The notes: generated by a model from the sequence alone, not told the origin. Positions 50,652 through 64,000 are shown, counted from the first letter of the stretch. The stretch is 64,000 nucleotides of DNA from Spirochaetia bacterium (GCA_965203905.1 CBDBDQ010000005.1:5248001-5312000), one strand, 5' to 3'. Numbers and translations are program-made.

Positions 50652-50976
50652 TCAGGGAACGCCGGCGCGGGTCACGGTAGCCGGCGGCTCCCCAACCGGA
50701 AGTTCCCACAGCGCGTCGAGCGCCGCTGTCACGTTCAGCGACTCGCCGTACCACTCGGGGGTAGCGGTGTGCGGCCCGATGCGAATGCCGGCCCCCGCCA
50801 GCCGCGCCACGGTCGGCGCCAGCGGGTCCCCGCCACCCTTCCACCGTGGCGCCGGCGGCACCGCCGGCAACGGCGCGCCATCCGGGCGCAGGAACTGGAA
50901 CCCCCCTGCGCCATTGGCGACTACCTGAAAGCCTCCTCGTGCAGCGCGCGGTGATGGAATCGGCACACGAGGCGTA
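50652..50976 (-). pseudogene. C-terminal fragment of the interrupted DUF222/HNH endonuclease gene
   Basis: Minus strand reads (L)RLVCRFHHRALHEE, then after a one-base frameshift GFQVVANGAGGFQFLRPDG..W; completes the HNH motif left open at 63320. Confidence 0.8.
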
Positions 50977-50994
50977 ATGCGAAGCGTCACATTA
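50975..50994. repeat. 20-bp imperfect palindrome made of RIT-type half-sites
   Basis: TAATGCGA-AGCG-TCACATTA; each half resembles the RIT repeat unit TAATGTGAAG. Confidence 0.7.
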
Positions 50995-51335
50995 TGAGAA
51001 GGAGTCTATCCGAGCTGGCCGCGCGAACGGCTGGCGCGCTGGCCGTTGCCCCGTGGCCGGGGCCAGTTCGGATAGGGTTGATTGAACTAAACCGCGCGCC
51101 TATGGAGATTGGAACGCCGGTATTCCGGTGGCGGCGGAGTGCTGGGCGTGCTCGGGCAGGCGGGAACTCGCGGAGCAGAACGGGGAGCTGGGTGACAGCG
51201 CCGCATGACAAGGCGGCGACGAGCGGTTGACGGGCAGATCGCGACCGGCGCCGCGCAGGGGTGCGCAGGAGCAACGGCACGGCGGCGCGAAGGGATGCGT
51301 GATGAGATCGAACCGACGGTGTTCTGGAGATTGAG

Positions 51336-52305
51336 TCATGCGGCCTCAGGGGGAGCGCGGCGACCAGGCAGGTACTCATACTCCCAGGTGGGTTGAGAGC
51401 AGAAGTCCTGGATGCGGCGCATGGTTCCTGCATGGCACACCGGACAGCGTTGGTGATCGTCGCCGGGGGGTTCGAGAGAAACTGAGAGATCAGGTGCAGT
51501 GATCAGGTCCTGGCCGGAGGCTTGGGCAATCAGATAGCGGCACAGCGGCAGTTTTTCCTTGCGTGCACGATTGGCAAGAAAGCCGTAGTGACGAATGCGG
51601 ACGAAGCGATCGGGCAGGACGTGCAGCAGGAAACGACGCAGAAACTCGACCGCATCAAGTTTCATCATCCGGTGCCGGCGGCCACGGGCATAGTCCCGGT
51701 AGCGGAAGCTCACCGAGTCCGCGTCAGCAGCGGTGATTCTGCTGTTGGCGATGGCGACGCGATGGGTGTAGCGGGCGAGATACTTCAGCACCTGCTCGGG
51801 GCCGCCGAAGGGAGGCTTGGCATACACCACCCACTGCTTGGCGCGCAGTTGCTGGCACAGTGCGCGGAAGCGAGCGGGATCAGCCAACTCGGCAAGGGCA
51901 CCGTGGAACTGGAGTTGGTCGGCAGCGAAGCGTTGCTTGAGCGCCGCCAGCATCTTGCCGCGAAACAGCTGTGAGAGGACTCGGACCGGGAGGAAGAAAT
52001 CGTCGCGGCAGGATATCCAGGTGGCCGCGTCAGGTGCCAACCCACCGCCGGGGATGACGCAGTGGATATGAGGATGGTGCAGCAGCGTTTGGCCCCAGGT
52101 GTGCAGCACGGCGATGAAGCCGATGTCAGCGCCGAGATGCTTGGGATCGGCGGCGATGGTCCTGAGGGTAGCGGCGGTGGCAGCGAACAGGGCGCCATAG
52201 ATTTCGCGTTGGTTCTGCAGCGCCAGCGGCGCCAGTTCCGCCGGCAGGGTGAAGACGACGTGGAAATAGGGGACCGGCAGGAGATCTTGGCAGCGCTTCT
52301 CCAGC
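51336..52305 (-). pseudogene. IS91-family transposase, C-terminal part of the disrupted left copy
   Basis: LEKRCQDLLPVPYFHVVFT..HPHIHC..YLARYTHR, identical to 61764..62978. Confidence 0.9.
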
Positions 52306-52428
52306 TGTTTCCAGCCAGCCGGGAGTGCCAAACCCCGCCAGTCAGCGTTGCCACGACGCGCCTGGGGCTGATGCCGAGGATCGCCAGGGTCGGGCGCGGC
52401 GACCTGAGCCGCGGCGCGCCGCGCAAGG

Positions 52429-53226
52429 TCAGTCGAAGAGGTCATCGGTGACGACGTTGGTGGAGTCGATGATGGTGATGTCGTGGGCGGCGGCATGCAG
52501 GATGGAGCGGTAGCAGAGAGCGTTGACGAGGCGCGGCACGCCGCCGGCGTGGCGGTGGATGTCCGCTTTGGCGTCATCGGCGAAGATCGAGGCCGGGCGC
52601 CCACAGCGAGCGGTGTGGTGGTCGATGTAGGAGCAGGTCTCCTGCAAGGTCAGGGGCGGCATGTGATAGGAGATGCGGATGCGCTGACGGACGGCAGCGA
52701 AGGGAGCGTACTTGAGCAATTCGCGCAGTTCGGGCTGGCCGGCGAGGACGAAGGTGATGGCGGTGCGGGAGTCGAAGTGAAAGTTCACCATGCCCTTGAT
52801 GGCGGTGAGAGCGGTGCCGGCGAGGTCCTGAGCGTCATCGATGACGACGACCGGTCTCCGGTTCAGTTCGGGAATGGTCTTGAAGAACAGTTGGCTGGCC
52901 TGGCCGGAGAAGAAGGGGGGATCGATCTTGAGACCTTCGAGGACCGCCTTGACCAGCCCGGCGGCGGAGAGGCCGGAGCCGCGGACGTAAAGCGGGCTGT
53001 AGCGGTTGCTGTCCAAGGCGGCGACGAAGGCGGCCAGAGCGACCGACTTGCCGCAGCCGATGGGGCCGGAGAGCAGCAGCAGGTCCTCGTCGGCGACGCC
53101 GAAGGAGAGCCGCGAGAGGGCCTCCTGGTGGGCGCTGGACGGGAAGGTGTCGGTGGGCGTGAGGTGCTTGCCGAACGGCAGGCGGGAGAAGCCGAAGAAG
53201 GAAAGGACTTGATCATGCATCGGCAT
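52429..53226 (-). CDS. ExeA-like AAA+ ATPase (transposition helper)
   Basis: FFGFSRLPF, SGPIGCGKS, VVIDDAQ, LAGQPEL, GVPRLVN. Confidence 0.9.
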   Translation of the reverse strand: MPMHDQVLSFFGFSRLPFGKHLTPTDTFPSSAHQEALSRLSFGVADEDLLLLSGPIGCGKSVALAAFVAALDSNRYSPLYVRGSGLSAAGLVKAVLEGLKIDPPFFSGQASQLFFKTIPELNRRPVVVIDDAQDLAGTALTAIKGMVNFHFDSRTAITFVLAGQPELRELLKYAPFAAVRQRIRISYHMPPLTLQETCSYIDHHTARCGRPASIFADDAKADIHRHAGGVPRLVNALCYRSILHAAAHDITIIDSTNVVTDDLFD

Positions 53227-54634
53227 CGTGGTGCTCCTGGTTGTTGTTTTTGTCGTCGTCGGTGGACTGGAAGCGGGTGAACGAAGTCTGATTGCGGTCG
53301 CGCAGCGCGGCGTGGTGCTGCTCGCGCAGGCGGGTGAACCAGGCGCGCGCCGCGGCCGACACCTGCGCCGGCTTGGCGGCGGACTCGGCGGGGACGTTGG
53401 GTACCTGCGCGGTGACCTGCCTGGAGGCGCTGGTGGTCTCCAGCAGCACGCCGGATGAGTCGTAGATGGCAAGCTGTACCAGGTCGTAGGGATCGAAGCG
53501 CACCTCGACCACGGTGCCGTGGGCGACGCTGGTGACCGGATACTGATTGCCGTGCAGCTTGATCTTGCCGTACTTGCTGACGGTGCGCCGAGCGCGCCAC
53601 AGGAACAGTGCGTTGAAGGCATCGAGATCGGTGATGCGGCGATGATCGGGCGGCAGGCCGTCGCGGAAGCGGGCATCGGGACTCTGCCCGGTAGCAGAGT
53701 GGACGCGGGTGTTGTACTCCAATTCCATCCAGGCCCAGAAGGCGGAGTTCAACTCGTCGATGGTGCGCATGCCGGCGACCTGGGCCTCGCGTTGGAACTG
53801 GTTCTTGATGGTCTTGTTGGCGGCCTCGATTTTGCCCTTGCAGTAGGCCTGATAGGGCGGGTGGCGCACCCGCTTGATACGCAGCTCGACCAGGATGGCG
53901 AGCAGGTGGCGGGCGAGATAGACCTTGCCGCCGTCGACGTAGACGCGCACCGGGATGCCGTAGCGCAACAGGCAGTAGCGGAAGCTGTCGAGCAAGGCAG
54001 GCAGCTTCTCGTCGAAGTAGTATTTGCCGAACAGGATTTTGCGGGAGAAGTCGTCGAGCCACAGGAACAGGTAGGTCTTCTTGCGGCCAGCGGGAGTGTC
54101 GAGCCAGATGCCGTCGCGGGCGTCGGCCTGTACCAGAGCCAGGGTGTGGGGCGCCTCGAAGGAGCGGAAGGAGGTGCGCGCATCGTCGCCGAGCATGAGG
54201 TAGCGGGTGCTCTTGGTGAGGCCGTGGTCGGCCAGGAAGCGGTACAGGGTGCGATCCGAGATACGCTTGATCTTGGGGCCGAGCTTGGCGTCGGCGGCGA
54301 TCAGCTTGCGCAGTTGCGAGACGCTTCTGGTGGGCACTTCGTTGATCAGGTTCAGCAGCTTGGCACGCAGCGCCGGATCGTGGACCCGCGGCGAGGTGGG
54401 CCGCGGGCGGTAGAACAGCAGGCCGCGAGGTCCCTGTTTCCGATAACGGTGCAGGTAGCCGCGGATGGTACGGTCACCGACTCGGTGACGTTCCTGGTAG
54501 AGCCGTTGCTCGGCCCGTTTGTCGGCCTCCGGCAGCAGCGGATCGAGCAGTATCTCGACCAGGTGGAGGCGCTCGCTGAATGCCTCCACGACCGCGTCCG
54601 GGAGCTGCTCCCAATTGAGGTCGCCGCCGCTCAT
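53213..54634 (-). CDS. DDE transposase (integrase core + Mu-transposase C-like tail)
   Basis: QAD, LDDFSR, YVDGGKVY, KGKIE, YNTRVHSATG.SP, RTVSKYGKIKLHGNQY. Confidence 0.9.
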   Translation of the reverse strand: MSGGDLNWEQLPDAVVEAFSERLHLVEILLDPLLPEADKRAEQRLYQERHRVGDRTIRGYLHRYRKQGPRGLLFYRPRPTSPRVHDPALRAKLLNLINEVPTRSVSQLRKLIAADAKLGPKIKRISDRTLYRFLADHGLTKSTRYLMLGDDARTSFRSFEAPHTLALVQADARDGIWLDTPAGRKKTYLFLWLDDFSRKILFGKYYFDEKLPALLDSFRYCLLRYGIPVRVYVDGGKVYLARHLLAILVELRIKRVRHPPYQAYCKGKIEAANKTIKNQFQREAQVAGMRTIDELNSAFWAWMELEYNTRVHSATGQSPDARFRDGLPPDHRRITDLDAFNALFLWRARRTVSKYGKIKLHGNQYPVTSVAHGTVVEVRFDPYDLVQLAIYDSSGVLLETTSASRQVTAQVPNVPAESAAKPAQVSAAARAWFTRLREQHHAALRDRNQTSFTRFQSTDDDKNNNQEHHDADA

Positions 54635-55224
54635 TCGAGATCCTCGTGTTCGCCGACGACGGCGCGCCGCAGCAGCTGATCGCGGTAGTCGCACCACGCC
54701 TCGTGCAGGCACAGGCCCGCCGGGCGCGTGCAGATCTCGCGCAGCCGCTCGACCTCCTCGGCGAGCTTCTGCAGCAGCACGTCGAGGACCAGCTCCAGGT
54801 GATCGGCCTCGCTGTGCCGCGGGGTGTCGGGATCGAGGAACAACTCCAACACCCAACTGCACAGGAACGAGAGCCGGTCAGCCAGTTCTTGCAGCAGCGC
54901 TGCCAGGAGCCCGAACTCCTCCAGCAGGCACGGCGGGGTATCGAGCAGCAGAGTCAATAGCCGCTCCCGCACCAGTGCGTCCTGCCGTCCGAACGCCGTC
55001 TGCCGGCGCCAAGTGCCGGTCAGCAAGCCGGCGACGCCGGTGTGCCGGTAGCGCGCCAGCGCCTGCCACAGGTCGCGCTCATCGTCGCCGCGGCGCCGGC
55101 ACTGCTCCAGCAGCCAGCCGCGCCGGCGTGGCGGTGGCGCCGGTTCTTGCAGAATCCGTCGTATCAAAAGCAGGTGCTCTTCCAGGCGAGCCACCTGGTG
55201 GGGAGAAACCAGTATCGCATCCAC
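54631..55224 (-). CDS. Hypothetical helical protein within the DDE transposon
   Basis: GGAGG RBS before GTG at 55224; ATGA overlap with the transposase. Confidence 0.65.
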   Translation of the reverse strand: MDAILVSPHQVARLEEHLLLIRRILQEPAPPPRRRGWLLEQCRRRGDDERDLWQALARYRHTGVAGLLTGTWRRQTAFGRQDALVRERLLTLLLDTPPCLLEEFGLLAALLQELADRLSFLCSWVLELFLDPDTPRHSEADHLELVLDVLLQKLAEEVERLREICTRPAGLCLHEAWCDYRDQLLRRAVVGEHEDLE

Positions 55225-55250
55225 GTTGATGCCTCCAAGGCGTGAGATGC

Positions 55251-55895
55251 TCAACTGGTATCGAACCAGAGCCAGTACCGTAAGACCTGATTCAATGGTA
55301 GTGCCAGCGGGCTGCGGGCGCGCACCACCACGTAGCACAGACGCAGGCAGCCGATGACCCCGAGCGCGCCGCCTCGACCCTGGGCGCGGCGTCTGGCAAG
55401 CGCGAGCGCTACCAGGTAACGATGCAACTCAGCCAAGCCGCTTCCGCCGGCGCGCACCTCAGGCAGCGCCGCGAATGGCGCCAACTCCGCCAGCAGTGCG
55501 CTTGCCGCCAGCGTGCTGGTCGCGATCAGGTGCCCTACCCACTCCAGATGACGCGTTATGGTGTGCTCGCAGAAGCTGCCGATCACGCCCGCAGCGCGCT
55601 CATAGGCCAGCTTGATGCCGACCTCCGGCCCCTTCGGATGCCGTGCCACCAGCTGGTGCAGGTTCATCGCCAGGTCCAGCCGGATGTTGCATTCCGGGAT
55701 CACGAACCACGGCAGCATGCGCTTGGTGTATTGCTTGCCCTGTCGCCGCGCCTTCTCACAGATGCACGACAGGATCAGAATCCGGTGGTTCCTGCCATCC
55801 GCGCAGCGCACCAGACGCTCACACCAGGCGTGGATGCGCAACGCATGCACACACCCGCACAGCAGGCATGGGTGCTGCGCGGCGGCGCCGGTCAC
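55251..55895 (-). CDS. Cys-rich DUF6431-like transposon accessory protein
   Basis: CLLCG..LRIHAWCERLVR..CIC..T.RMLPWFVIP; first gene of the element. Confidence 0.6.
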   Translation of the reverse strand: MTGAAAQHPCLLCGCVHALRIHAWCERLVRCADGRNHRILILSCICEKARRQGKQYTKRMLPWFVIPECNIRLDLAMNLHQLVARHPKGPEVGIKLAYERAAGVIGSFCEHTITRHLEWVGHLIATSTLAASALLAELAPFAALPEVRAGGSGLAELHRYLVALALARRRAQGRGGALGVIGCLRLCYVVVRARSPLALPLNQVLRYWLWFDTS

Positions 55896-56097
55896 CGTCG
55901 CCAGATATACTTGAATGTCGAAACCTGCAAGGTTAGGATGTGCCAGTTCTCTTGGTGGGGGTCACCGTGTACCGGGCAAAGTACAGGCGGTGGCCCCTAT
56001 CTCTTTTCTTGGTCTCCGGAACCGCTTCCGGGCGAACCTATCCTATCCCTGCTGGCGGGGTTGTACAGAACCAGGAACTCTCACTTGGCGGGCAACA

Positions 56098-56348
56098 TCC
56101 AGCCACTTGGCGCGCTGCTGCGCCTGGCACTTCGGACAGTGACGATTGCGGCAGGAGTTGTACGATACGCGTAGTTCACCACAGGCGTCGCAAGCATCGA
56201 CGTGGCCGCCGAGCTTGGCAGTACGGCAGGCTGTGAGGTCGCGCATGACGCGCTGTTGTGCCTGCGACACCCGCAAGCCTGGCACGCGACCGTCGGTAGT
56301 GGCCAGGGTACGGATGACGTCGGCCACCTCGAAGGGTGGCTGGTGCAC
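56098..56348 (-). pseudogene. IS91-family transposase, N-terminal zinc-binding fragment of the left copy
   Basis: CRTAKLGGH..CDACG..YNSCRNRHCPKCQ, cut at AKWL by the insertion. Confidence 0.9.
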
Positions 56349-56355
56349 GGATCGC

Positions 56356-57198
56356 TCAGCGCAGCGGTGGCAACGACTCCAGTGGGCTCTCGACTGCGCT
56401 GATGCGCTTGCGGGTGACGTGGGTATAGATCACGGTACTCCTGATCGAGGCATGTCCGAGCAGCGCCTGGACGGTGCGCAGATCGGTGCCGGATTCCAGC
56501 AGGTGGGTGGCGAAACAGTGGCGCAAGGTATGCGGGGATACGGGCTTGCCGGCGACGACGTGGCGCACCTTGGCGATGGCCTGCGCCACCGCATCCCTGG
56601 TGACGTGGCGGTCGCGATAGGTCCTGCTGGGAAACAGCCAGTGGCGGGGCCGATAGCGTCGGTAGTGGCAGCGCAAGTGGTGCAGCAGGAGCGGCGCCAA
56701 GGTCACCAAACGATCCTTGCGGCCCTTGCCTTGCACGACGTGCAGCAGCATCCGCTCGCTGTCGATATCGGTAATCCGCAGGGAGACCGCCTCGGAAACG
56801 CGCAGCCCGGCGGCATACAGGGTCATGGCAATGACGCGGTGCTGCGGGTTGGTGATCGCATCGAGTACGGCGCGCACCTGGTCCTGGCTCAAGACCAGCG
56901 GCAGCTTCTTGGGCTGCTTGGCGAACGGGATGGACTCGATGTGCCAGTCCTTGCCGAGGGTCTTGAGGTACAGGAAGCGGAGAGCGCAGACCGCCTGATT
57001 GAAGCTGCCCCAGCCCAGATTTCGCTCCTGCACCAGATGCAGTTGATAGGCTCGTATTTCGTCGAGCCCGAGCAGTTCCGGAGAGCGGTTGAAGTAGCGC
57101 GCAAACAACGCGACCTGGCGGACGTAGTACTCGATGGTGTGCGGGGACAGGTTGCGCACCCGCATGTCTTCGATCATTCTCTGGCGCAGTGGTGTCAT
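56356..57198 (-). CDS. Tyrosine recombinase/integrase (left copy)
   Basis: MTPLRQRMIEDM, AGLRVSE, GKGRKDR, HTLRHCFATHLLE, LLGH..STVIY. Confidence 0.93.
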   Translation of the reverse strand: MTPLRQRMIEDMRVRNLSPHTIEYYVRQVALFARYFNRSPELLGLDEIRAYQLHLVQERNLGWGSFNQAVCALRFLYLKTLGKDWHIESIPFAKQPKKLPLVLSQDQVRAVLDAITNPQHRVIAMTLYAAGLRVSEAVSLRITDIDSERMLLHVVQGKGRKDRLVTLAPLLLHHLRCHYRRYRPRHWLFPSRTYRDRHVTRDAVAQAIAKVRHVVAGKPVSPHTLRHCFATHLLESGTDLRTVQALLGHASIRSTVIYTHVTRKRISAVESPLESLPPLR

Positions 57199-57518
57199 GA
57201 TGGACTCCTCCTGGTGTAGAGACGCGTGGTCCATCAGCCCCCGGAGCGCCGTTACGCTCCGGGGGCAACCACCCATCTCCCGTTAGTAGAGGTCAGACAC
57301 CATATAGGGGTTGTACGTGGGAAGGGCTCCGCGCCTCGAGACGGCCGACGCCACCCCTACCGCGAAGCGGTTTAGTTCTAGTCAGCTAATGTAAAGTGCG
57401 GGATTATGTGAAGTAGATGGCAGGACGGGTCCATTTGATGGGCTCCAGGCAGCATTAGCGGGTAATTGCGGTAGCCAGGACTTCGCATTATCGCGCTCCT
57501 TCAAGCAAGGAGGCATCC

Positions 57519-58748
57519 ATGCTTGAAGACCATCTCAAGTTGGCGAGCACTTGTCGCAGACTCCGTCGTGGGCCCGCGTGCGCGTATATAGACGGCTTCG
57601 CCGACTGGCTCCATGAGCGCGGCTATCAAGCCAAGTTTGTCCTGCGTACGTTGGCGGGATGGACCGACTGGCTCACCGCGAAATCGTTTACTGATGAGGC
57701 TTTCGTAGCCGGGTACGAGGCGTGCCGGAAGGAGTTGTCTGAGCGAGGCCGTGTCCGCTATCAGCGGGGACCCAACCGAAATTCACTGTGGGCCGCCACG
57801 GTGTTCATCCGGTTCTTGCGGGAGCAGGGCGTCGTGGCCGTCGAGCAGCGGCTGATTCTGAGCGAACGCTGGCCACTGCTGAAGCAGTTTCGGCAGTGGA
57901 TGCTGCAACACCGAGGCGTGACACACAGCACCATGGACGGCTACGAGCGCTACGTAGCCGATTTCATCGAGGCTCTGGGAGTTGTTCCGGCGCACTACAG
58001 CGCCGCTGCGGTGCGCGGCTTTGTGATCAAGCGCTGTGACGGTCATAAGGTCAAAACGGCTCAGTCGATCACCACGGCGGTGCGTGCCTTCTTGCGGTTC
58101 CTCGCCGCCACCGGGCAGTGCTGCGACGGCCTGCGGCACGCGGTGCCACGCTTCGCGTGCTACCAGCTCGCCGCCACGCCGCGGTTCCTTGAGCCTGAGG
58201 ATCTGGAGAAGGTAGTCGCCAGTTGCACCGATGAGGATGCAGTTGGGGCCAGAGATCGGGCGGTAGTCCTGCTGCTCGCTCGGCTAGGCCTGCGCGCCAG
58301 CGAGGTCGCCGAGCTGACCTTCGATGCGGTCGACTGGCAGCACGGGCGCATCGCCGTCTGCGGCAAGGGTCGGCGCCAACACTGGCTGCCGCTTCCGCAG
58401 CAGGTCGGCGACGCCATCGTCACCTATCTGCGCCGCGGACGCCCGCCGTTGCCGGTGCCACAGGTGTTCATCTCGGCTGTGGCGCCGCGTCGCCCGATGA
58501 CTCGACAAGCCGTGTCCGGTGTCGTGTGCAAAGCTCTCCGTCGCGCAGGCATCAAGGCGCCCCACCACGGTGCACATCTGCTGCGCCATTCGGCCGCCAC
58601 CGCCATGCTGCGCAACGGGGTGTCCCTGGCCGGTATCGGCAGTGTCCTGAGGCACCGCTCCCCGCAGACCACCGCCCACTACGCCAAGATCGACTTCGAG
58701 CTGCTGGGCGAAATCGCCCAGCCGTGGCCGGAGGCACCATCATGCTGA
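57519..58748 (+). CDS. ritA: RIT tyrosine recombinase A
   Basis: LGLRASEV, GKG, HLLRHSAAT, LRH..TTAHY. Confidence 0.9.
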   Translation: MLEDHLKLASTCRRLRRGPACAYIDGFADWLHERGYQAKFVLRTLAGWTDWLTAKSFTDEAFVAGYEACRKELSERGRVRYQRGPNRNSLWAATVFIRFLREQGVVAVEQRLILSERWPLLKQFRQWMLQHRGVTHSTMDGYERYVADFIEALGVVPAHYSAAAVRGFVIKRCDGHKVKTAQSITTAVRAFLRFLAATGQCCDGLRHAVPRFACYQLAATPRFLEPEDLEKVVASCTDEDAVGARDRAVVLLLARLGLRASEVAELTFDAVDWQHGRIAVCGKGRRQHWLPLPQQVGDAIVTYLRRGRPPLPVPQVFISAVAPRRPMTRQAVSGVVCKALRRAGIKAPHHGAHLLRHSAATAMLRNGVSLAGIGSVLRHRSPQTTAHYAKIDFELLGEIAQPWPEAPSC

Positions 58749-59653
58749 ACGACCACGTAGAGCGCTATCTCATGCTGCGGCGATCCCTCGGTTACAAGCT
58801 GCGGGACACAGCCCGCCATCTCCAGGCGTTCGCAGGTTTCGCCAGCGACAGGGGCGATACCCATGTCCGCGCCGCTACCGCCGTGGAGTGGGCAGCGCAG
58901 GCGTCCTCGCCGCTCATGCGCCATGTTCGACTCCATGACGTCGTCCTGTTGGCCCGCTTCTTGTACGCCGAGGACGCGACCCACGAGATACCCCCAGCTC
59001 GCTACTTCCAGGTCCGTGTGGTGCGCCAGCCGCCCTACATCTACACGCCGGCTGAGATCGGCCAACTGCTGGTGGCGGCGCACCGTCTGCCCTGCTCCTA
59101 CGCGCTGCGCCGGCCCGTCTATGCGACCCTGATCGGGCTCATCGCCGCCACCGGACTGCGGGTCTCGGAGGCGCTCGACCTACGCTTCGACGACCTGCTT
59201 CCCAACGCCGTTCTGCGCATCCGCCAAACCAAGTTCGCCAAGAGCCGACTGGTGCCGCTGCATGCGACCTCGGTCGACGCACTGACTGCGTACTTGCAGG
59301 AGCGGCAGCGCTTCGCCAGCGCCGACGACCATCTGTTCGTGTCAGCGAACCGCCGGCGCATCCCGACACCAATGGCCAGTACTACCTTCCAAAAAGTGAT
59401 CCGGCTCGCAGGCATCGCTCCTGGCCGCCAGCGCCGCCCCCGACTGGCGGATCTGCGTCACACCTTTGCCACCAGATCCCTGCAACGCTGTGCGGTCCAG
59501 CGCGATTCGGTGGCGCGCCACTTGGTCGCGCTCTCCACCTACCTCGGTCACGCTAGCCCCGCCTACACCTACTGGTACTTGGAGGCGACCCCGGAATTGA
59601 TGGCCGACATCGCCACGGCCGGCGAGAACCTGGTTGCCGGGAGGTTGGCATGA
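58742..59653 (+). CDS. ritB: RIT tyrosine recombinase B
   Basis: RRSLGYKL, TGLRVSEAL, TKFAKSRLVP, DLRHTFA, YLGH..TYWY. Confidence 0.9.
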   Translation: MLNDHVERYLMLRRSLGYKLRDTARHLQAFAGFASDRGDTHVRAATAVEWAAQASSPLMRHVRLHDVVLLARFLYAEDATHEIPPARYFQVRVVRQPPYIYTPAEIGQLLVAAHRLPCSYALRRPVYATLIGLIAATGLRVSEALDLRFDDLLPNAVLRIRQTKFAKSRLVPLHATSVDALTAYLQERQRFASADDHLFVSANRRRIPTPMASTTFQKVIRLAGIAPGRQRRPRLADLRHTFATRSLQRCAVQRDSVARHLVALSTYLGHASPAYTYWYLEATPELMADIATAGENLVAGRLA

Positions 59654-60642
59654 CTCCCATCGCACCCCTGATCACCCACTTCCTGCGCGACTACCTCCCT
59701 GTGGAGCGCGGCTATAGCCCGCATACCTGCGAGAGCTACGCCTATGCCTTCCGTCTGTTGTTCACCTTCGCCGCCGAACGCCTCGGCGTCAGACCGTCGG
59801 CGCTTCACCTTGAACATCTCGACGCACCGCTCATCGTCGCTTTCCTGACCCACTTCGAGGTGGATCGTGGTGGCAGCCCCGCCAGCCGCAACGTCCGCCT
59901 GGCAGCAGTGAAAGCCTTCATGCGCTATGTCGAGTTCCGCCACCCGGCGGCACTCGACATAGCCAGGCAGATCCTCGCCATCCCCTCCAAGCGCCATGAT
60001 CAGCCGCTCGTCCGCCACCTCACCATGGACCAGATCAACGCGATTCTGGACGCTCCCGATACCTCCACCCGGTTCGGCATCCGCGACCGCGCCATGCTCC
60101 ATCTGTGTTTCGCCGCTGCGCTGCGCGTGTCCGAACTGGTGACGGCGCAGGTAGCAGATCTGTCGCTGCGCGGAACTGCGAGTATCCGAGTCCTTGGCAA
60201 GGGCCGCCGTGAGCGCTGTCTCCCGCTGTGGAAGCAGACCACCGCTGACCTGCGCGCTTGGCTCGCCGTGCGCGGAGAGGTTTCCACGCCTGAGCTGTTT
60301 CTGAACGCTACCGACAGGCCGATGGGTCGCGCCGGGTTCAAGCACCTCCTGAACAAGCATGTGCGCGCTGCCGTAGCGGACTGCCCCTCGCTGGCCGGAC
60401 GCTCGATCTCGCCTCACCAGCTCCGCCACAGCTGCGCCGTCATCTTGCTCCAGGCTACCGGTGATATCCGCAAGGTGGCACTGTGGTTGGGGCATGCCGA
60501 TGTGCGCACCACCGAAGTCTATCTACGCGTCGATCCCACCGAGAAGTTGGAGGCCGTCGAAGCCGTGCTGCCACCGGAACTACGTCGCGGTCGTTTCAAA
60601 GCCCCTGACGCTCTGATCGCCGCGCTCCTGGACCCGAGATAA
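59650..60642 (+). CDS. ritC: RIT tyrosine recombinase C
   Basis: SRNVRLAAV, LRVSEL, GKGRRER, SPHQLRHSCA, WLGH..TTEVY. Confidence 0.9.
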   Translation: MTPIAPLITHFLRDYLPVERGYSPHTCESYAYAFRLLFTFAAERLGVRPSALHLEHLDAPLIVAFLTHFEVDRGGSPASRNVRLAAVKAFMRYVEFRHPAALDIARQILAIPSKRHDQPLVRHLTMDQINAILDAPDTSTRFGIRDRAMLHLCFAAALRVSELVTAQVADLSLRGTASIRVLGKGRRERCLPLWKQTTADLRAWLAVRGEVSTPELFLNATDRPMGRAGFKHLLNKHVRAAVADCPSLAGRSISPHQLRHSCAVILLQATGDIRKVALWLGHADVRTTEVYLRVDPTEKLEAVEAVLPPELRRGRFKAPDALIAALLDPR

Positions 60643-60845
60643 TGTGCAGCGATCTTGGACACAACTTACTTTCCTGGCAGGAGTTAAGTAGCGCTACTTT
60701 ACATAATCCCGCACTTCACATTAGAGGATCATTGAACTAAACCGCTTCGCGGTAGGGGTGGCGTCGGCCGTCTCGAGGCGCGGAGCCCTTCCCACGTACA
60801 ACCCCTATATGGTGTCTGACCTCTACTAACGGGAGATGGGTGGTT

Positions 60846-60875
60846 GCCCCCGGAGCGTAACGGCGCTCCGGGGGC
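60846..60875 (+). promoter_or_regulatory. Perfect 12-bp hairpin upstream of the integrase
   Basis: gcccccggagcg-taacgg-cgctccgggggc, also present in the left copy. Confidence 0.5.
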
Positions 60876-60913
60876 TGATGGACCACGCGTCTCTACACCA
60901 GGAGGAGTCCATC

Positions 60914-61756
60914 ATGACACCACTGCGCCAGAGAATGATCGAAGACATGCGGGTGCGCAACCTGTCCCCGCACACCATCGAGTACTACGTCCGCCAGGTC
61001 GCGTTGTTTGCGCGCTACTTCAACCGCTCTCCGGAACTGCTCGGGCTCGACGAAATACGAGCCTATCAACTGCATCTGGTGCAGGAGCGAAATCTGGGCT
61101 GGGGCAGCTTCAATCAGGCGGTCTGCGCTCTCCGCTTCCTGTACCTCAAGACCCTCGGCAAGGACTGGCACATCGAGTCCATCCCGTTCGCCAAGCAGCC
61201 CAAGAAGCTGCCGCTGGTCTTGAGCCAGGACCAGGTGCGCGCCGTACTCGATGCGATCACCAACCCGCAGCACCGCGTCATTGCCATGACCCTGTATGCC
61301 GCCGGGCTGCGCGTTTCCGAGGCGGTCTCCCTGCGGATTACCGATATCGACAGCGAGCGGATGCTGCTGCACGTCGTGCAAGGCAAGGGCCGCAAGGATC
61401 GTTTGGTGACCTTGGCGCCGCTCCTGCTGCACCACTTGCGCTGCCACTACCGACGCTATCGGCCCCGCCACTGGCTGTTTCCCAGCAGGACCTATCGCGA
61501 CCGCCACGTCACCAGGGATGCGGTGGCGCAGGCCATCGCCAAGGTGCGCCACGTCGTCGCCGGCAAGCCCGTATCCCCGCATACCTTGCGCCACTGTTTC
61601 GCCACCCACCTGCTGGAATCCGGCACCGATCTGCGCACCGTCCAGGCGCTGCTCGGACATGCCTCGATCAGGAGTACCGTGATCTATACCCACGTCACCC
61701 GCAAGCGCATCAGCGCAGTCGAGAGCCCACTGGAGTCGTTGCCACCGCTGCGCTGA
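60914..61756 (+). CDS. Tyrosine recombinase/integrase (right copy)
   Basis: GGAGG RBS; R-K-HxxR-H-Y catalytic set intact. Confidence 0.93.
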   Translation: MTPLRQRMIEDMRVRNLSPHTIEYYVRQVALFARYFNRSPELLGLDEIRAYQLHLVQERNLGWGSFNQAVCALRFLYLKTLGKDWHIESIPFAKQPKKLPLVLSQDQVRAVLDAITNPQHRVIAMTLYAAGLRVSEAVSLRITDIDSERMLLHVVQGKGRKDRLVTLAPLLLHHLRCHYRRYRPRHWLFPSRTYRDRHVTRDAVAQAIAKVRHVVAGKPVSPHTLRHCFATHLLESGTDLRTVQALLGHASIRSTVIYTHVTRKRISAVESPLESLPPLR

Positions 61757-61763
61757 GCGATCC

Positions 61764-62978
61764 GTGCACCAGCCACCCTTCGAGGTGGCCGACGTCATCC
61801 GTACCCTGGCCACTACCGACGGTCGCGTGCCAGGCTTGCGGGTGTCGCAGGCACAACAGCGCGTCATGCGCGACCTCACAGCCTGCCGTACTGCCAAGCT
61901 CGGCGGCCACGTCGATGCTTGCGACGCCTGTGGTGAACTACGCGTATCGTACAACTCCTGCCGCAATCGTCACTGTCCGAAGTGCCAGGCGCAGCAGCGC
62001 GCCAAGTGGCTGGAGAAGCGCTGCCAAGATCTCCTGCCGGTCCCCTATTTCCACGTCGTCTTCACCCTGCCGGCGGAACTGGCGCCGCTGGCGCTGCAGA
62101 ACCAACGCGAAATCTATGGCGCCCTGTTCGCTGCCACCGCCGCTACCCTCAGGACCATCGCCGCCGATCCCAAGCATCTCGGCGCTGACATCGGCTTCAT
62201 CGCCGTGCTGCACACCTGGGGCCAAACGCTGCTGCACCATCCTCATATCCACTGCGTCATCCCCGGCGGTGGGTTGGCACCTGACGCGGCCACCTGGATA
62301 TCCTGCCGCGACGATTTCTTCCTCCCGGTCCGAGTCCTCTCACAGCTGTTTCGCGGCAAGATGCTGGCGGCGCTCAAGCAACGCTTCGCTGCCGACCAAC
62401 TCCAGTTCCACGGTGCCCTTGCCGAGTTGGCTGATCCCGCTCGCTTCCGCGCACTGTGCCAGCAACTGCGCGCCAAGCAGTGGGTGGTGTATGCCAAGCC
62501 TCCCTTCGGCGGCCCCGAGCAGGTGCTGAAGTATCTCGCCCGCTACACCCATCGCGTCGCCATCGCCAACAGCAGAATCACCGCTGCTGACGCGGACTCG
62601 GTGAGCTTCCGCTACCGGGACTATGCCCGTGGCCGCCGGCACCGGATGATGAAACTTGATGCGGTCGAGTTTCTGCGTCGTTTCCTGCTGCACGTCCTGC
62701 CCGATCGCTTCGTCCGCATTCGTCACTACGGCTTTCTTGCCAATCGTGCACGCAAGGAAAAACTGCCGCTGTGCCGCTATCTGATTGCCCAAGCCTCCGG
62801 CCAGGACCTGATCACTGCACCTGATCTCTCAGTTTCTCTCGAACCCCCCGGCGACGATCACCAACGCTGTCCGGTGTGCCATGCAGGAACCATGCGCCGC
62901 ATCCAGGACTTCTGCTCTCAACCCACCTGGGAGTATGAGTACCTGCCTGGTCGCCGCGCTCCCCCTGAGGCCGCATGA
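61764..62978 (+). CDS. IS91-family (HUH/Y2) transposase with N-terminal zinc-binding domain
   Basis: SCRNRHCPKC, HPHIH (HUH), YLARY (YxxxY), RIRHYG, C-terminal CPVC. Confidence 0.93.
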   Translation: MHQPPFEVADVIRTLATTDGRVPGLRVSQAQQRVMRDLTACRTAKLGGHVDACDACGELRVSYNSCRNRHCPKCQAQQRAKWLEKRCQDLLPVPYFHVVFTLPAELAPLALQNQREIYGALFAATAATLRTIAADPKHLGADIGFIAVLHTWGQTLLHHPHIHCVIPGGGLAPDAATWISCRDDFFLPVRVLSQLFRGKMLAALKQRFAADQLQFHGALAELADPARFRALCQQLRAKQWVVYAKPPFGGPEQVLKYLARYTHRVAIANSRITAADADSVSFRYRDYARGRRHRMMKLDAVEFLRRFLLHVLPDRFVRIRHYGFLANRARKEKLPLCRYLIAQASGQDLITAPDLSVSLEPPGDDHQRCPVCHAGTMRRIQDFCSQPTWEYEYLPGRRAPPEAA

Positions 62979-63238
62979 CTCAATCTCCAGAACACCGTCG
63001 GTTCGATCTCATCACGCATCCCTTCGCGCCGCCGTGCCGTTGCTCCTGCGCACCCCTGCGCGGCGCCGGTCGCGATCTGCCCGTCAACCGCTCGTCGCCG
63101 CCTTGTCATGCGGCGCTGTCACCCAGCTCCCCGTTCTGCTCCGCGAGTTCCCGCCTGCCCGAGCACGCCCAGCACTCCGCCGCCACCGGAATACCGGCGT
63201 TCCAATCTCCATAGGCGCGCGGTTTAGTTCAATCAACC

Positions 63239-63308
63239 CTATCCGAACTGGCCCCGGCCACGGGGCAACGGCCAGCGCGCCAGCCGTTCGCGCGGCCAGC
63301 TCGGATAG
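63239..63308 (+). repeat. Terminal hairpin of the int-IS91 element (15-bp stem)
   Basis: ctatccgaactggcc / ggccagctcggatag, 1 mismatch; mirrored in the left copy. Confidence 0.7.
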
Positions 63309-63319
63309 ACTCCTTCTCA

Positions 63320-64000
63320 AATTGCTGAGCTCTGTCGCCCCGCCGTCCGCCCAATGCACGACGTGATGGGCGTCGCAGTGGCGGGAGTTGCAGCCGGGAA
63401 ACTGACAGCCGTTGCGATCCCGGCCTTCGAGAGCACGGCGCATCGCGGTCGGAACCGTCCGGGTCCGGCGCCCCACGTCGAGTACGCCGCCGTCGGGGGC
63501 GTGGATCAGCACCAACCCCCCGGAGTCGCAGCCGATGCGGCGTGCGGCGTGCTTGCCCAGGTGGATGCCTCCAGCCTGCTCAATTACCGCCTGGCCGGCG
63601 TCAAGGCCGGATCCCGCCGCGGCGTGGTGGTGAGCGTCCGCGGTGTCGACATGCGTCTGGCCCGCAACGGCATCCGCCGGCGCCGCAGGTCCCGAGGCCG
63701 CTTCGCGGGCCGCCTGCGTTTCCGCGGAAGTGGCCGCCGTGGGGGCGTCCACCGCGGGACCTTCACGTCCCGCGGCCGCCGGGCAGGTCGCGGACGTTTC
63801 CGCGGAAGTGTCCACTGTAGCGGCGTTCGCCGCGGGGTGTGCAGGTTCCGGGACCGTCGGGCGGGTCGCGCGCGATGCCGCGAAAAGGTCCGCGATGGCC
63901 GCGTTCGCCGTGGGGGCTGCAGGTTCCGGGGACACTGGGCGGATCGTGTGCGTTTCCGCGGAAGTGTCTGCCGTGGCGTTGATGGGCTCGCTGGAGCGAA
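63320..64000 (-). pseudogene. DUF222/HNH endonuclease gene, upstream part (runs off the window), truncated by the insertion
   Basis: ARRIGCD..LDVGRRTRTVPTAMRRALEGRD.GCQFPGC..CDAHHVVHWADGGATELSNL. Confidence 0.88.
63717..63967 (-). repeat. Degenerate 78-bp (26-aa) coding tandem repeat
   Basis: cgtttccgcggaag (TSAET) at 63717, 63795 and 63951, degenerate copy at 63873. Confidence 0.75.

Follow-up and report, generated by a model that had tools for sequence, protein, structure and literature searches.

In a 64,000-nucleotide stretch of a Spirochaetia bacterium genome (GCA_965203905.1, CBDBDQ010000005.1:5248001-5312000, or G000:C5:5248001-5312000 in our numbering; source genome 7.99 Mb, 66% GC), hereafter the window, we describe a 2,586-bp element, termed X, that pairs an integron-like tyrosine recombinase (Int) with an IS91 Y2 transposase (Tnp) and that is present twice, in inverted orientation, around a recombinase in trio (RIT) element, RIT1. 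X inserts without a long duplication at the spacer edge of a recombinase-type core with inverted arms of about 10 bp, placed to the exact base and in either orientation relative to the RIT, and it is very probable that such core sites are targeted. RIT ends supply the core in two forms—a RIT end, 6 bp and a 20-bp palindrome, or a RIT end, 6 or 8 bp and an arm from the HNH endonuclease gene that served as the RIT target. The window is a four-layer nest, with a RIT inside an HNH gene, X inserted twice and a Mu-like transposon in one of the X copies. Taken as a whole, the explanation that we favor—an ISAzo26-like X that inserts at core edges, its own Int perhaps choosing the site—is one that we would accept or doubt about equally.

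Insertion of X at the edges of core sites

The right copy, XR (60734-63319, + strand), and the left copy, XL (50995-57378, - strand), are 100% identical in their shared parts (complementary arms 50990-52305/62009-63324 and 56098-57378/60734-62014), as an initial annotation of the window had noted, and the XL unit measures 6,384 bp against the 2,586 bp of XR because a 3,792-bp transposon (52306-56097), flanked by a 6-bp duplication (TCCAGC), interrupts its transposase gene. We call the end of X upstream of int TER (TT, then GAACTAAACCGC) and the end downstream of tnp ORI (...GGATAGACTCCTTCTCA). As first reported, the GAAC (TER) end stands 7 bp from the 31-bp RIT inverted repeat on the left (57379-57385) and 9 bp from it on the right (60725-60733). 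In-silico removal of the left copy joins ...GTCACATTA through TAGTCAGC to TAATGTAAAG, and removal of the right copy joins ...GGATCATT to AATTGC; these are the junctions originally given, but the 8-9-bp spacer read from them has to be revised to a core of arm, 6 bp and arm.

Two further copies of X are present in the host genome, X2 (99.9% identical) and X3 (91%). Read in the orientation of X, XL lies in ...CTTTACATTA-GCTGAC-TA[X]TAATGTGACGCTTCGCATTA (in short, CATTA-GCTGAC-TA[X]TAATGTGACG), X2 in ...GTCACATTA-CGCCTT-TA[X]TAATGTAAAGTGCGGG (CATTA-CGCCTT-TA[X]TAATGTAAAG), its right flank being the left end of a second RIT (RIT2), XR in ...CTTCACATTA-GAGGATCA-TT[X]AATTGCTGAG (CATTA-GAGGATCA-TT[X]AATTGC), and X3 in ...GTTCATAA-ATTCTA-TT[X + 21-nt tandem copy of end]TTATGTCG (CATAA-ATTCTA-TT[X..]TTATGT). 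Tabulated in this way, the flanks of all three near-identical copies and of the 91% copy obey one positional rule: the ORI end rests on an arm, and the TER end, with TT or TA (elsewhere CT), rests on the spacer, which is 6 bp long, or 8 bp at XR. The TT/TA dinucleotide at TER is often the same as the first two bases of the arm. The reported lack of a target duplication holds for repeats of at least 3 bp, none of which was seen at any of the four copies in the host genome, XL having TA on both sides; a 2-nt repeat occurs at six of the ten X copies for which both flanks are known. X2 meets RIT2 by its ORI end, the reverse of the arrangement of XL and XR at RIT1. The orientation specificity proposed at the outset is thus retained relative to the half-site and lost relative to the RIT, where both orientations occur because the core is near-palindromic.

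In the window, the ORI end of XL abuts, at 50995, a 20-bp palindrome (TAATGCGAAGCGTCACATTA, 50975-50994) that forms one arm of the target core; the identical 20-mer lies to the left of RIT2 as it does of RIT1, and X-free 20-mers stand 6 bp from RIT ends in relatives. On its other side, XL with its TA (57379-57380) is followed by a 6-bp spacer, GTCAGC (57381-57386), and the left arm of RIT1, a distance of 6 bp that is found also in X-free relatives. XR, comprising TT and X (60732-63319, + strand; TER end GAACTAAACCGC at 60734, ORI end ...CTCCTTCTCA at 63319), is separated from the right end of RIT1 by the 8-bp spacer GAGGATCA (60724-60731), whose opposite strand consists of HNH codons.

The RIT element and its sites without X

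The flanked element is a standard RIT, with three adjacent, overlapping recombinase genes and terminal inverted repeats. RIT1 (TAATGTAAAG...CTTCACATTA, 57387-60723, + strand) encodes three tyrosine recombinases of 409, 375, and 330 aa, all matching PF00589—ritA (57519-58748), ritB (within 58526-59653), and ritC (59650-60642)—between 31-bp repeats (57386-57416 and 60694-60724) that are 94% complementary, and the repeats and all three genes are intact. With these intact, the early suggestion that X is a hyperparasite that blocks RIT excision or hitchhikes on it would be a possibility at most. RIT2 (C5:6314849-6318185) is 99.7% identical to it and is flanked by HNH halves of a different type. The halves outside RIT1 belong to a single DUF222-type gene, reading ...HHVVHWADGGATELSN on the right and RLVCRFHHRALHEEAFR followed by the stop codon on the left, and taking out XR together with TT leaves agc aat ttg atc ctc (S N L I L) in frame; the RIT therefore came earlier and X later, TT being part of X. 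Eight intact HNH paralogs in the host genome read ...SNLVxxCRFHHRxxHE, none of them with a RIT or X.

Related RITs were found in five relatives (G001, G006, G010, G016, and G018), and all 17 informative left ends there are free of X. Nine of them directly follow the HNH codons N-L-x-L (...aayctnnnnctc, then TAATG), and in the other eight exactly 6 bp separate the RIT from the 20-bp palindrome, as in TAATGCGAAGCTGCGCATTA-GAGTTG-TAATGCGCAG. All four right ends captured, which have the other orientation, read RIT end, 6 bp, 20-mer, 6 bp, and (R)C.AHH of the HNH 3' half. The 20-mer resembles the first 10 bp and the last 10 bp of the RIT joined together, and regardless of RIT orientation it is found on the side toward the HNH 3' half. 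Two features of these RIT sites are recorded here in their own right. The 6-mers on either side of the 20-mer are often mutual reverse complements (CAACTC/GAGTTG), producing a 32-bp palindrome (L173-L176, L180), and the RIT clade sits after the N-L-x-L codons of two HNH types (L054-L078, L173-L176), with a different 6-bp spacer on each side, which resembles a carried-over coupling sequence.

Two other readings were considered and rejected. The RIT did not insert beside a resident X, given that the 20-mer-6 bp-RIT arrangement is present without X in relatives, nor is the spacer a coupling sequence carried by X, since the spacers are present in X-free RIT and 20-mer copies, the 6-mers flanking the 20-mer are often reverse complements, and the XR spacer is HNH coding sequence.

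We find it scarcely credible that misassembly of identical repeats produced the inverted duplication at RIT1. The X copies and the two RITs are indeed similar enough for such an error, and among the short public Logan contigs that we matched to the window none spans the structure; yet both outer HNH halves come from one gene, of another type than those around RIT2, and the assembled contig is 7.8 Mb long. Moreover, in one sequencing run that is possibly the source sample (run X15), a contig covers 60123-60760 unbroken and loose contig ends reproduce the junctions of X2 with RIT2 and of X3. Runs X1 and X16 each gave one contig with a 3,009-bp skip (57515 to 60525) and 20 letters on the shorter side, which were not used; a contig of run X16 that passes from a TER end into 6 nt and a near-palindromic 20-mer is a single weak record.

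Association of X with core sites among relatives

We surveyed 24 genomes of the host family, from which 21 distinct TER flanks and 12 outer ORI flanks were obtained. CATWA-N6..8-TW precedes six of the 21 TER ends, against 5e-5 per oriented position in the 7.99-Mb genome, and TWATGY follows seven of the 12 outer ORI ends, against a background of 1e-4 per position; chance is excluded as the source of this adjacency. No more than three unoccupied CATWA-N6/8-TWATG sites exist in about 8 Mb, none of them RIT-like. In G008, an 84-bp mini-RIT with both terminal repeats and no genes is present in two copies (L039:14008-14091 and L038), both in HNH genes, and both carry X—one with the TER end at 6 bp, the other as 20-mer-AGAATC-TT[X]mini-RIT (0 bp)—and a partial X with its ORI end on a 20-mer marks a third event in the same genome. 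Fragments of X near RIT-like genes in G010 and G006 are too decayed to read.

We also asked whether RIT and X might merely share a taste for AT-rich patches or HNH genes, or might move as one unit, such that these cases are not independent. Nested-element 'junkyards' are common, and in G018 the copy L046 borders an HNH gene at the point between N-L and R-L, with no RIT on the visible side. On the other side of the question, the junctions of XL, X2, and XR and the three in G008 differ in orientation, spacer, and side, and therefore represent separate insertion events; the eight RIT-free HNH paralogs of the host genome lack X; and the base-exact geometry recurs in Beta- and Alphaproteobacteria (below). 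We regard a shared taste or joint movement as very unlikely.

The same geometry in distant bacteria

ISAzo26, on plasmid 2 of Aromatoleum aromaticum EbN1, lies in TTATGGAAAGCTTTCCATAA-GGGTCG-TT, followed by the insertion sequence (IS) itself (GGACTAAACCGC...[int, tnp]...CCCTCTGCA) and then TTATGCAAAGTTCTCGATTATGGAAAG; the order is 20-mer, 6 bp, TT, IS, RIT left repeat (TTATGCAAAG...), and recombinase gene, as at X2. Nine loci in 251 Rhodocyclaceae genomes have at least 73% DNA identity to ISAzo26 (TER motif of the group, TTGNACNAANCCGC), and RitA/B/C-like genes adjoin the IS in five of the nine. At L197 and L198 the pattern arm-6 bp-TT/CT[IS]20-mer is present on both sides, and the geometry is seen also at L212. 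Among plasmids, we inspected 11 of 354 records, picked by taxon and not at random, and RIT genes adjoin the IS in five (Aromatoleum, Paraburkholderia aromaticivorans, P. phymatum, P. sabiae, and Sinorhizobium meliloti), the last three of which can be read to the exact geometry of 6 bp + TT. In Caballeronia Lep1P3, the IS occupies a perfect 10-6-10 core that is not a RIT, GGCCCGATAA-GAACAA-^-TTATCGGGCC, beside a gene for a 556-aa integrase, and a Spirochaetaceae-titled contig (L152) reads 20-mer-AGGAAA-TT up to the TER end. In an Acidobacteriaceae metagenome-assembled genome (MAG; L122), the TER end and a RIT are a few hundred bp apart, and no terminal repeat could be placed. Across lineages, the arm sequence varies (TWATG, CTATG, AAATG, TTATC) and the insertion point is constant.

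Further nesting was observed at some of these loci. In P. aromaticivorans pBN3 (L217), a group II intron lies between the RIT and the int-IS91 element, an extra layer at the same spot, and in Alphaproteobacteria (L134, L141, L142) an int-IS91 relative is contained in a unit of ~3,975 bp bounded by inverted repeats, CTAGCACTACTTTGGCAGAT, at three sites in one MAG; the same repeat precedes the IS in Bradyrhizobium (L089, L090, L225).

An IS91 element with an integron-like recombinase

Int of X is a 306-aa tyrosine recombinase (PF00589 and PF13495), and Tnp, of 404 aa, starts 8 nt past the end of int, matching PF14319 (3.6e-31), PF04986 (1.7e-68), and the NCBIfam IS91 model NF033538 (446 bits against a cutoff of 125). 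In XR the two genes occupy 60836-61756 and 61764-62978; in XL, int (56356-57276) is in the proximal part (56098-57380, - strand, X positions 1-1281 and the TA), and the distal part (50995-52305, - strand, X positions 1276-2586) retains the C-terminal 324 aa of the transposase. In alignments of 41 sequences, the catalytic residues of Int (R159, K184, R252, H275, Y284) and the H159/H161/H163 and Y257/Y261 of Tnp (motifs HHPHIHCV and YLARYTHR) are invariant. The int-tnp pair is present in all 79 loci matching the transposase, spread over many phyla at 50-63% identity, of which the closest two are Spirochaetia bacterium MAGs. The models nearest to Int are those for integron integrase (TIGR02249, 210 bits in two stretches, below the cutoff of 265) and XerA; judged by these scores, Int is a relative of the integron integrases (IntI) and not a member.

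X is a member of the IS91 family, with a zinc-binding Y2 HUH transposase, no target duplication, and unlike ends, and it belongs to the ISAzo26-like, integrase-carrying subgroup, in which a tyrosine recombinase gene lies immediately upstream on the same strand. The tetranucleotide (GAAC/CAAG) that characterizes the family next to the ori end is largely missing: the outer ORI flanks are mostly TWATGY, with CAAGTT in one of 12, and X is therefore a variant IS91 member in its choice of target. ISAzo26, a RefSeq-named member of the family, shares with X the gene order, an internal inverted TER copy about 90 nt from the ORI end, and a similar TER motif (TTGGACTAAACCGC against TTGAACTAAACCGC in X); its Tnp is 53.8% identical over 98% of the length, and it differs in coming from another phylum and in having only about half of its residues in common with X. 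IS91, IS801, and IS1294 resemble X in the zinc-binding Y2 HUH transposase, the lack of a long duplication, the distinct ori and ter ends, and GAAC at the ter end. To our knowledge, these canonical members have no integrase and use GAAC/CAAG as target tetranucleotide, so that X departs from them in carrying one and in its ORI flank.

Several sequence features touch on how X might move. The ORI end is preceded by a hairpin with a 15-bp stem (63239-63308 in XR), and when the junction of an X circle is folded in silico, TER pairs with the internal inverted copy (63219-63233 in XR) over 21 pairs (z about -5.8), placing the joint at the loop/stem edge. Tandem repeats of the final 19 nt of X with TT, twice in X3 (G000:C5:2165848-2165890) and four times in a G018 copy (L045:14937-15020), occupy the ORI end and could be left over from repeated rounds of initiation or termination, and solo TER ends of 24-40 bp (GAACTAAACCGCTTCGCGGTAGGG, with TT before) occur with the rest of X absent in G001, G015, G019, and G020/G023 (L159-L163, L050). 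Together, the tandem 21-nt ORI repeats and the solo TER ends are at most indirect hints of rolling-circle transposition through single-stranded circles. Prediction of an Int-Tnp complex from 41-row alignments gave no support and counts neither for nor against, and a scan of metagenome contigs for the ORI-end pattern returned a single chance match (L158), unrelated and without X genes.

Which enzyme chooses the site

In the mechanism that we favor, X is an active element within the ISAzo26-like, integrase-carrying branch of the IS91 family, and its HUH Y2 transposase would produce a circular, probably single-stranded, copy; the integron-like tyrosine recombinase of X would then choose the site and make or guide the joint, exchanging one strand at the position where recombinases ordinarily cleave. 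Tyrosine recombinases cleave at the boundary of spacer and arm, and we lean toward Int as the chooser because the edge used is this cleavage point, because the geometry is conserved and the arm sequence is not, and because the integrase is universally retained, with the integron-like grouping of IS91 recombinases and the folded circle junction of X as further arguments; even so, the role of Int falls at or just short of an even chance. More tentatively, X might be a hybrid machine, in which the HUH enzyme copies X out as a single-stranded circle, TER and the internal copy fold in the manner of attC, and Int pastes the circle into foreign core sites, RITs above all. If this were true, integrase-carrying IS91 elements would be self-replicating 'cassettes' that use foreign att sites as attI.

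A serious alternative, if one that we still consider doubtful, is that the HUH Y2 transposase acts alone, targeting an arm hairpin in single-stranded DNA or a word ending in WA and cutting at the stem/loop edge, with the integrase put to other uses such as multimer resolution or circles. IS91-type enzymes cut beside a short word (GAAC/CAAG for IS91) at both the ori and ter ends as well as in the target, and in agreement with this idea the two ends share 2-5 nt in every lineage, one X copy sits at CAAG, the ORI end bears its hairpin, and the joint is at a loop/stem edge in both the target and the X junction. The idea accounts less readily for arms that vary by lineage while the position is kept, for XR and the G008:C6 copy, which stand 8 and 6 bp from a perfect, unused CATTA/CATAA word, and for an integrase retained with intact catalytic residues in 79 of 79 loci.

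A lesser possibility, and an improbable one, is that X has no site preference and that the recombinases of the resident RIT, or of another element, open or mark their own cores and capture an X intermediate. Arms of any sequence would be explained in this way, each RIT having enzymes matched to its own arms, and X is found at the cleavage point expected of those enzymes. For X3 and L037, however, both at TWATG sites, the nearest 8 kb contains no RIT genes; the G008 mini-RITs are without any enzyme gene (only one weak match to the RIT1 left end was found in that genome); and the 17 RIT left ends in the five relatives are unoccupied.

As to where X goes, the initial proposal of insertion into RIT recombination sites is upheld by all three near-identical copies, by X3 at a RIT-arm-like site, by both mini-RITs of G008, and by the distant taxa; exclusivity is what falls away. 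Copies at sites unrelated to RIT ends, which had been named as the outcome that would speak against the proposal, are not seen in the host genome but do occur in the family, and they head a list of points that weigh against targeting of cores by Int. Fifteen of the 21 host-family TER flanks have no recognizable core, among them five solo TER stubs, two flanks next to a Mu-like end, and two inside HNH genes where no RIT is visible. The preference is not absolute, as the X-free RIT left ends of the five relatives attest; six RITs in G018 and three in G010 have no X at the left end, and both genomes hold X remnants elsewhere. The 20 loci inspected in one Bradyrhizobium sp. genome are at GG-ATT-CC, with no RIT within 6 kb, and five of the 11 plasmid records have no recombinase gene beside the IS. 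XR itself is off the rule, with an 8-bp rather than a 6-bp spacer and AATTGC rather than TWATG. Short direct repeats border the element in every lineage (ATT, CGTTT, GATTT, TT/TA), and such repeats would be just as compatible with an HUH enzyme cutting after a single short word. The score of Int is under the integron-integrase cutoff, and the long-range order of the identical copies depends on the assembly together with the match between the HNH halves.

Comparison with known systems and implications

Integron integrases acting on attC, and CTX-type phages at dif, would offer a parallel to the insertion of X, which likewise appears to enter at one cleavage point of a core without duplication and to have a mobile partner with a folded stem. 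Int falls with integron-like recombinases, and the TER sequence TTGAAC fits the integron cassette core, whose consensus is TTRRRY. Unlike integrons, X has no attI or cassette array, and its single-stranded circle would come from the HUH transposase. In 10.1101/542381, IS91 recombinases are placed in an integron-like subgroup and are reported to lack the helical insertion specific to IntI.

The habit of X recalls other element hunters. The IS1111-attC group and the 'res hunters' of the Tn5053 family target the recombination sites of other elements, and like X they prefer such a site and keep a fixed orientation to it; they differ in having DEDD or DDE enzymes and in targeting attC and res. Our literature searches turned up no element that hunts RIT ends and no description in print of an integrase-IS91 element paired with a RIT, although ISfinder, supplements, and Ricker et al. 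2013, which were outside the search, may record it.

X is not itself a RIT, and RIT1 is standard in its genes, its ~31-bp repeats, and its two near-identical copies. According to PMC10214605 (Table 1), target specificity has not been tested for RITs and RIT transposition has never been reproduced; Van Houdt et al. 2012 (PMC3414803) report a palindrome next to ritA/ritC and describe complex RIT arrays on EbN1 plasmid 2. The X-free junctions described above define a RIT target, the HNH codons N-L-x-L, together with a 20-bp terminal palindrome and crossover-like spacers of 6 bp; relative to the table cited, the HNH target and the 20-mer are additions to the picture, and how RIT elements move becomes a testable question. 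For the tyrosine recombinase of this IS91 branch, the base-exact position at a recombinase-type core provides a testable hypothesis and a defined DNA substrate, and cultured hosts exist in A. aromaticum EbN1, P. phymatum, and S. meliloti. The taxonomic reach of X-type targeting is far wider than one MAG, and for annotation an integrase + IS91 pair beside three recombinase genes should be read as two nested elements, not one island.

Other features of the window

The split DUF222-type HNH gene is on the - strand, its 3' end (translated as RLVCRFHHRALHEEAFR and the stop) at 50921-50974 and its 5' part (...HCDAHHVVHWADGGATELSN) at 63320-64000, where it runs off the window. Four 78-nt tandem repeats, 65-72% alike, occupy 63674-63985 in the N-terminal coding part of this gene. 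The transposon in the XL transposase gene (52306-56097, - strand) is Mu/Tn552-like, with ends TGTTTCC...GGCAACA, and encodes an rve + Mu-transpos_C transposase (53213-54862) and an AAA_22 ATPase (52429-53676). Elsewhere, X copies are broken or bordered by MuA/MuB-like genes in G008, in G018 (twice), and in G010 (twice), at loci L039, L041, L042, L045, and L046, and in G010 the TER end of X lies directly on a Mu-like end, ...TGTCGA, on two occasions; X itself may be a preferred target of Mu/Tn552-like transposons.

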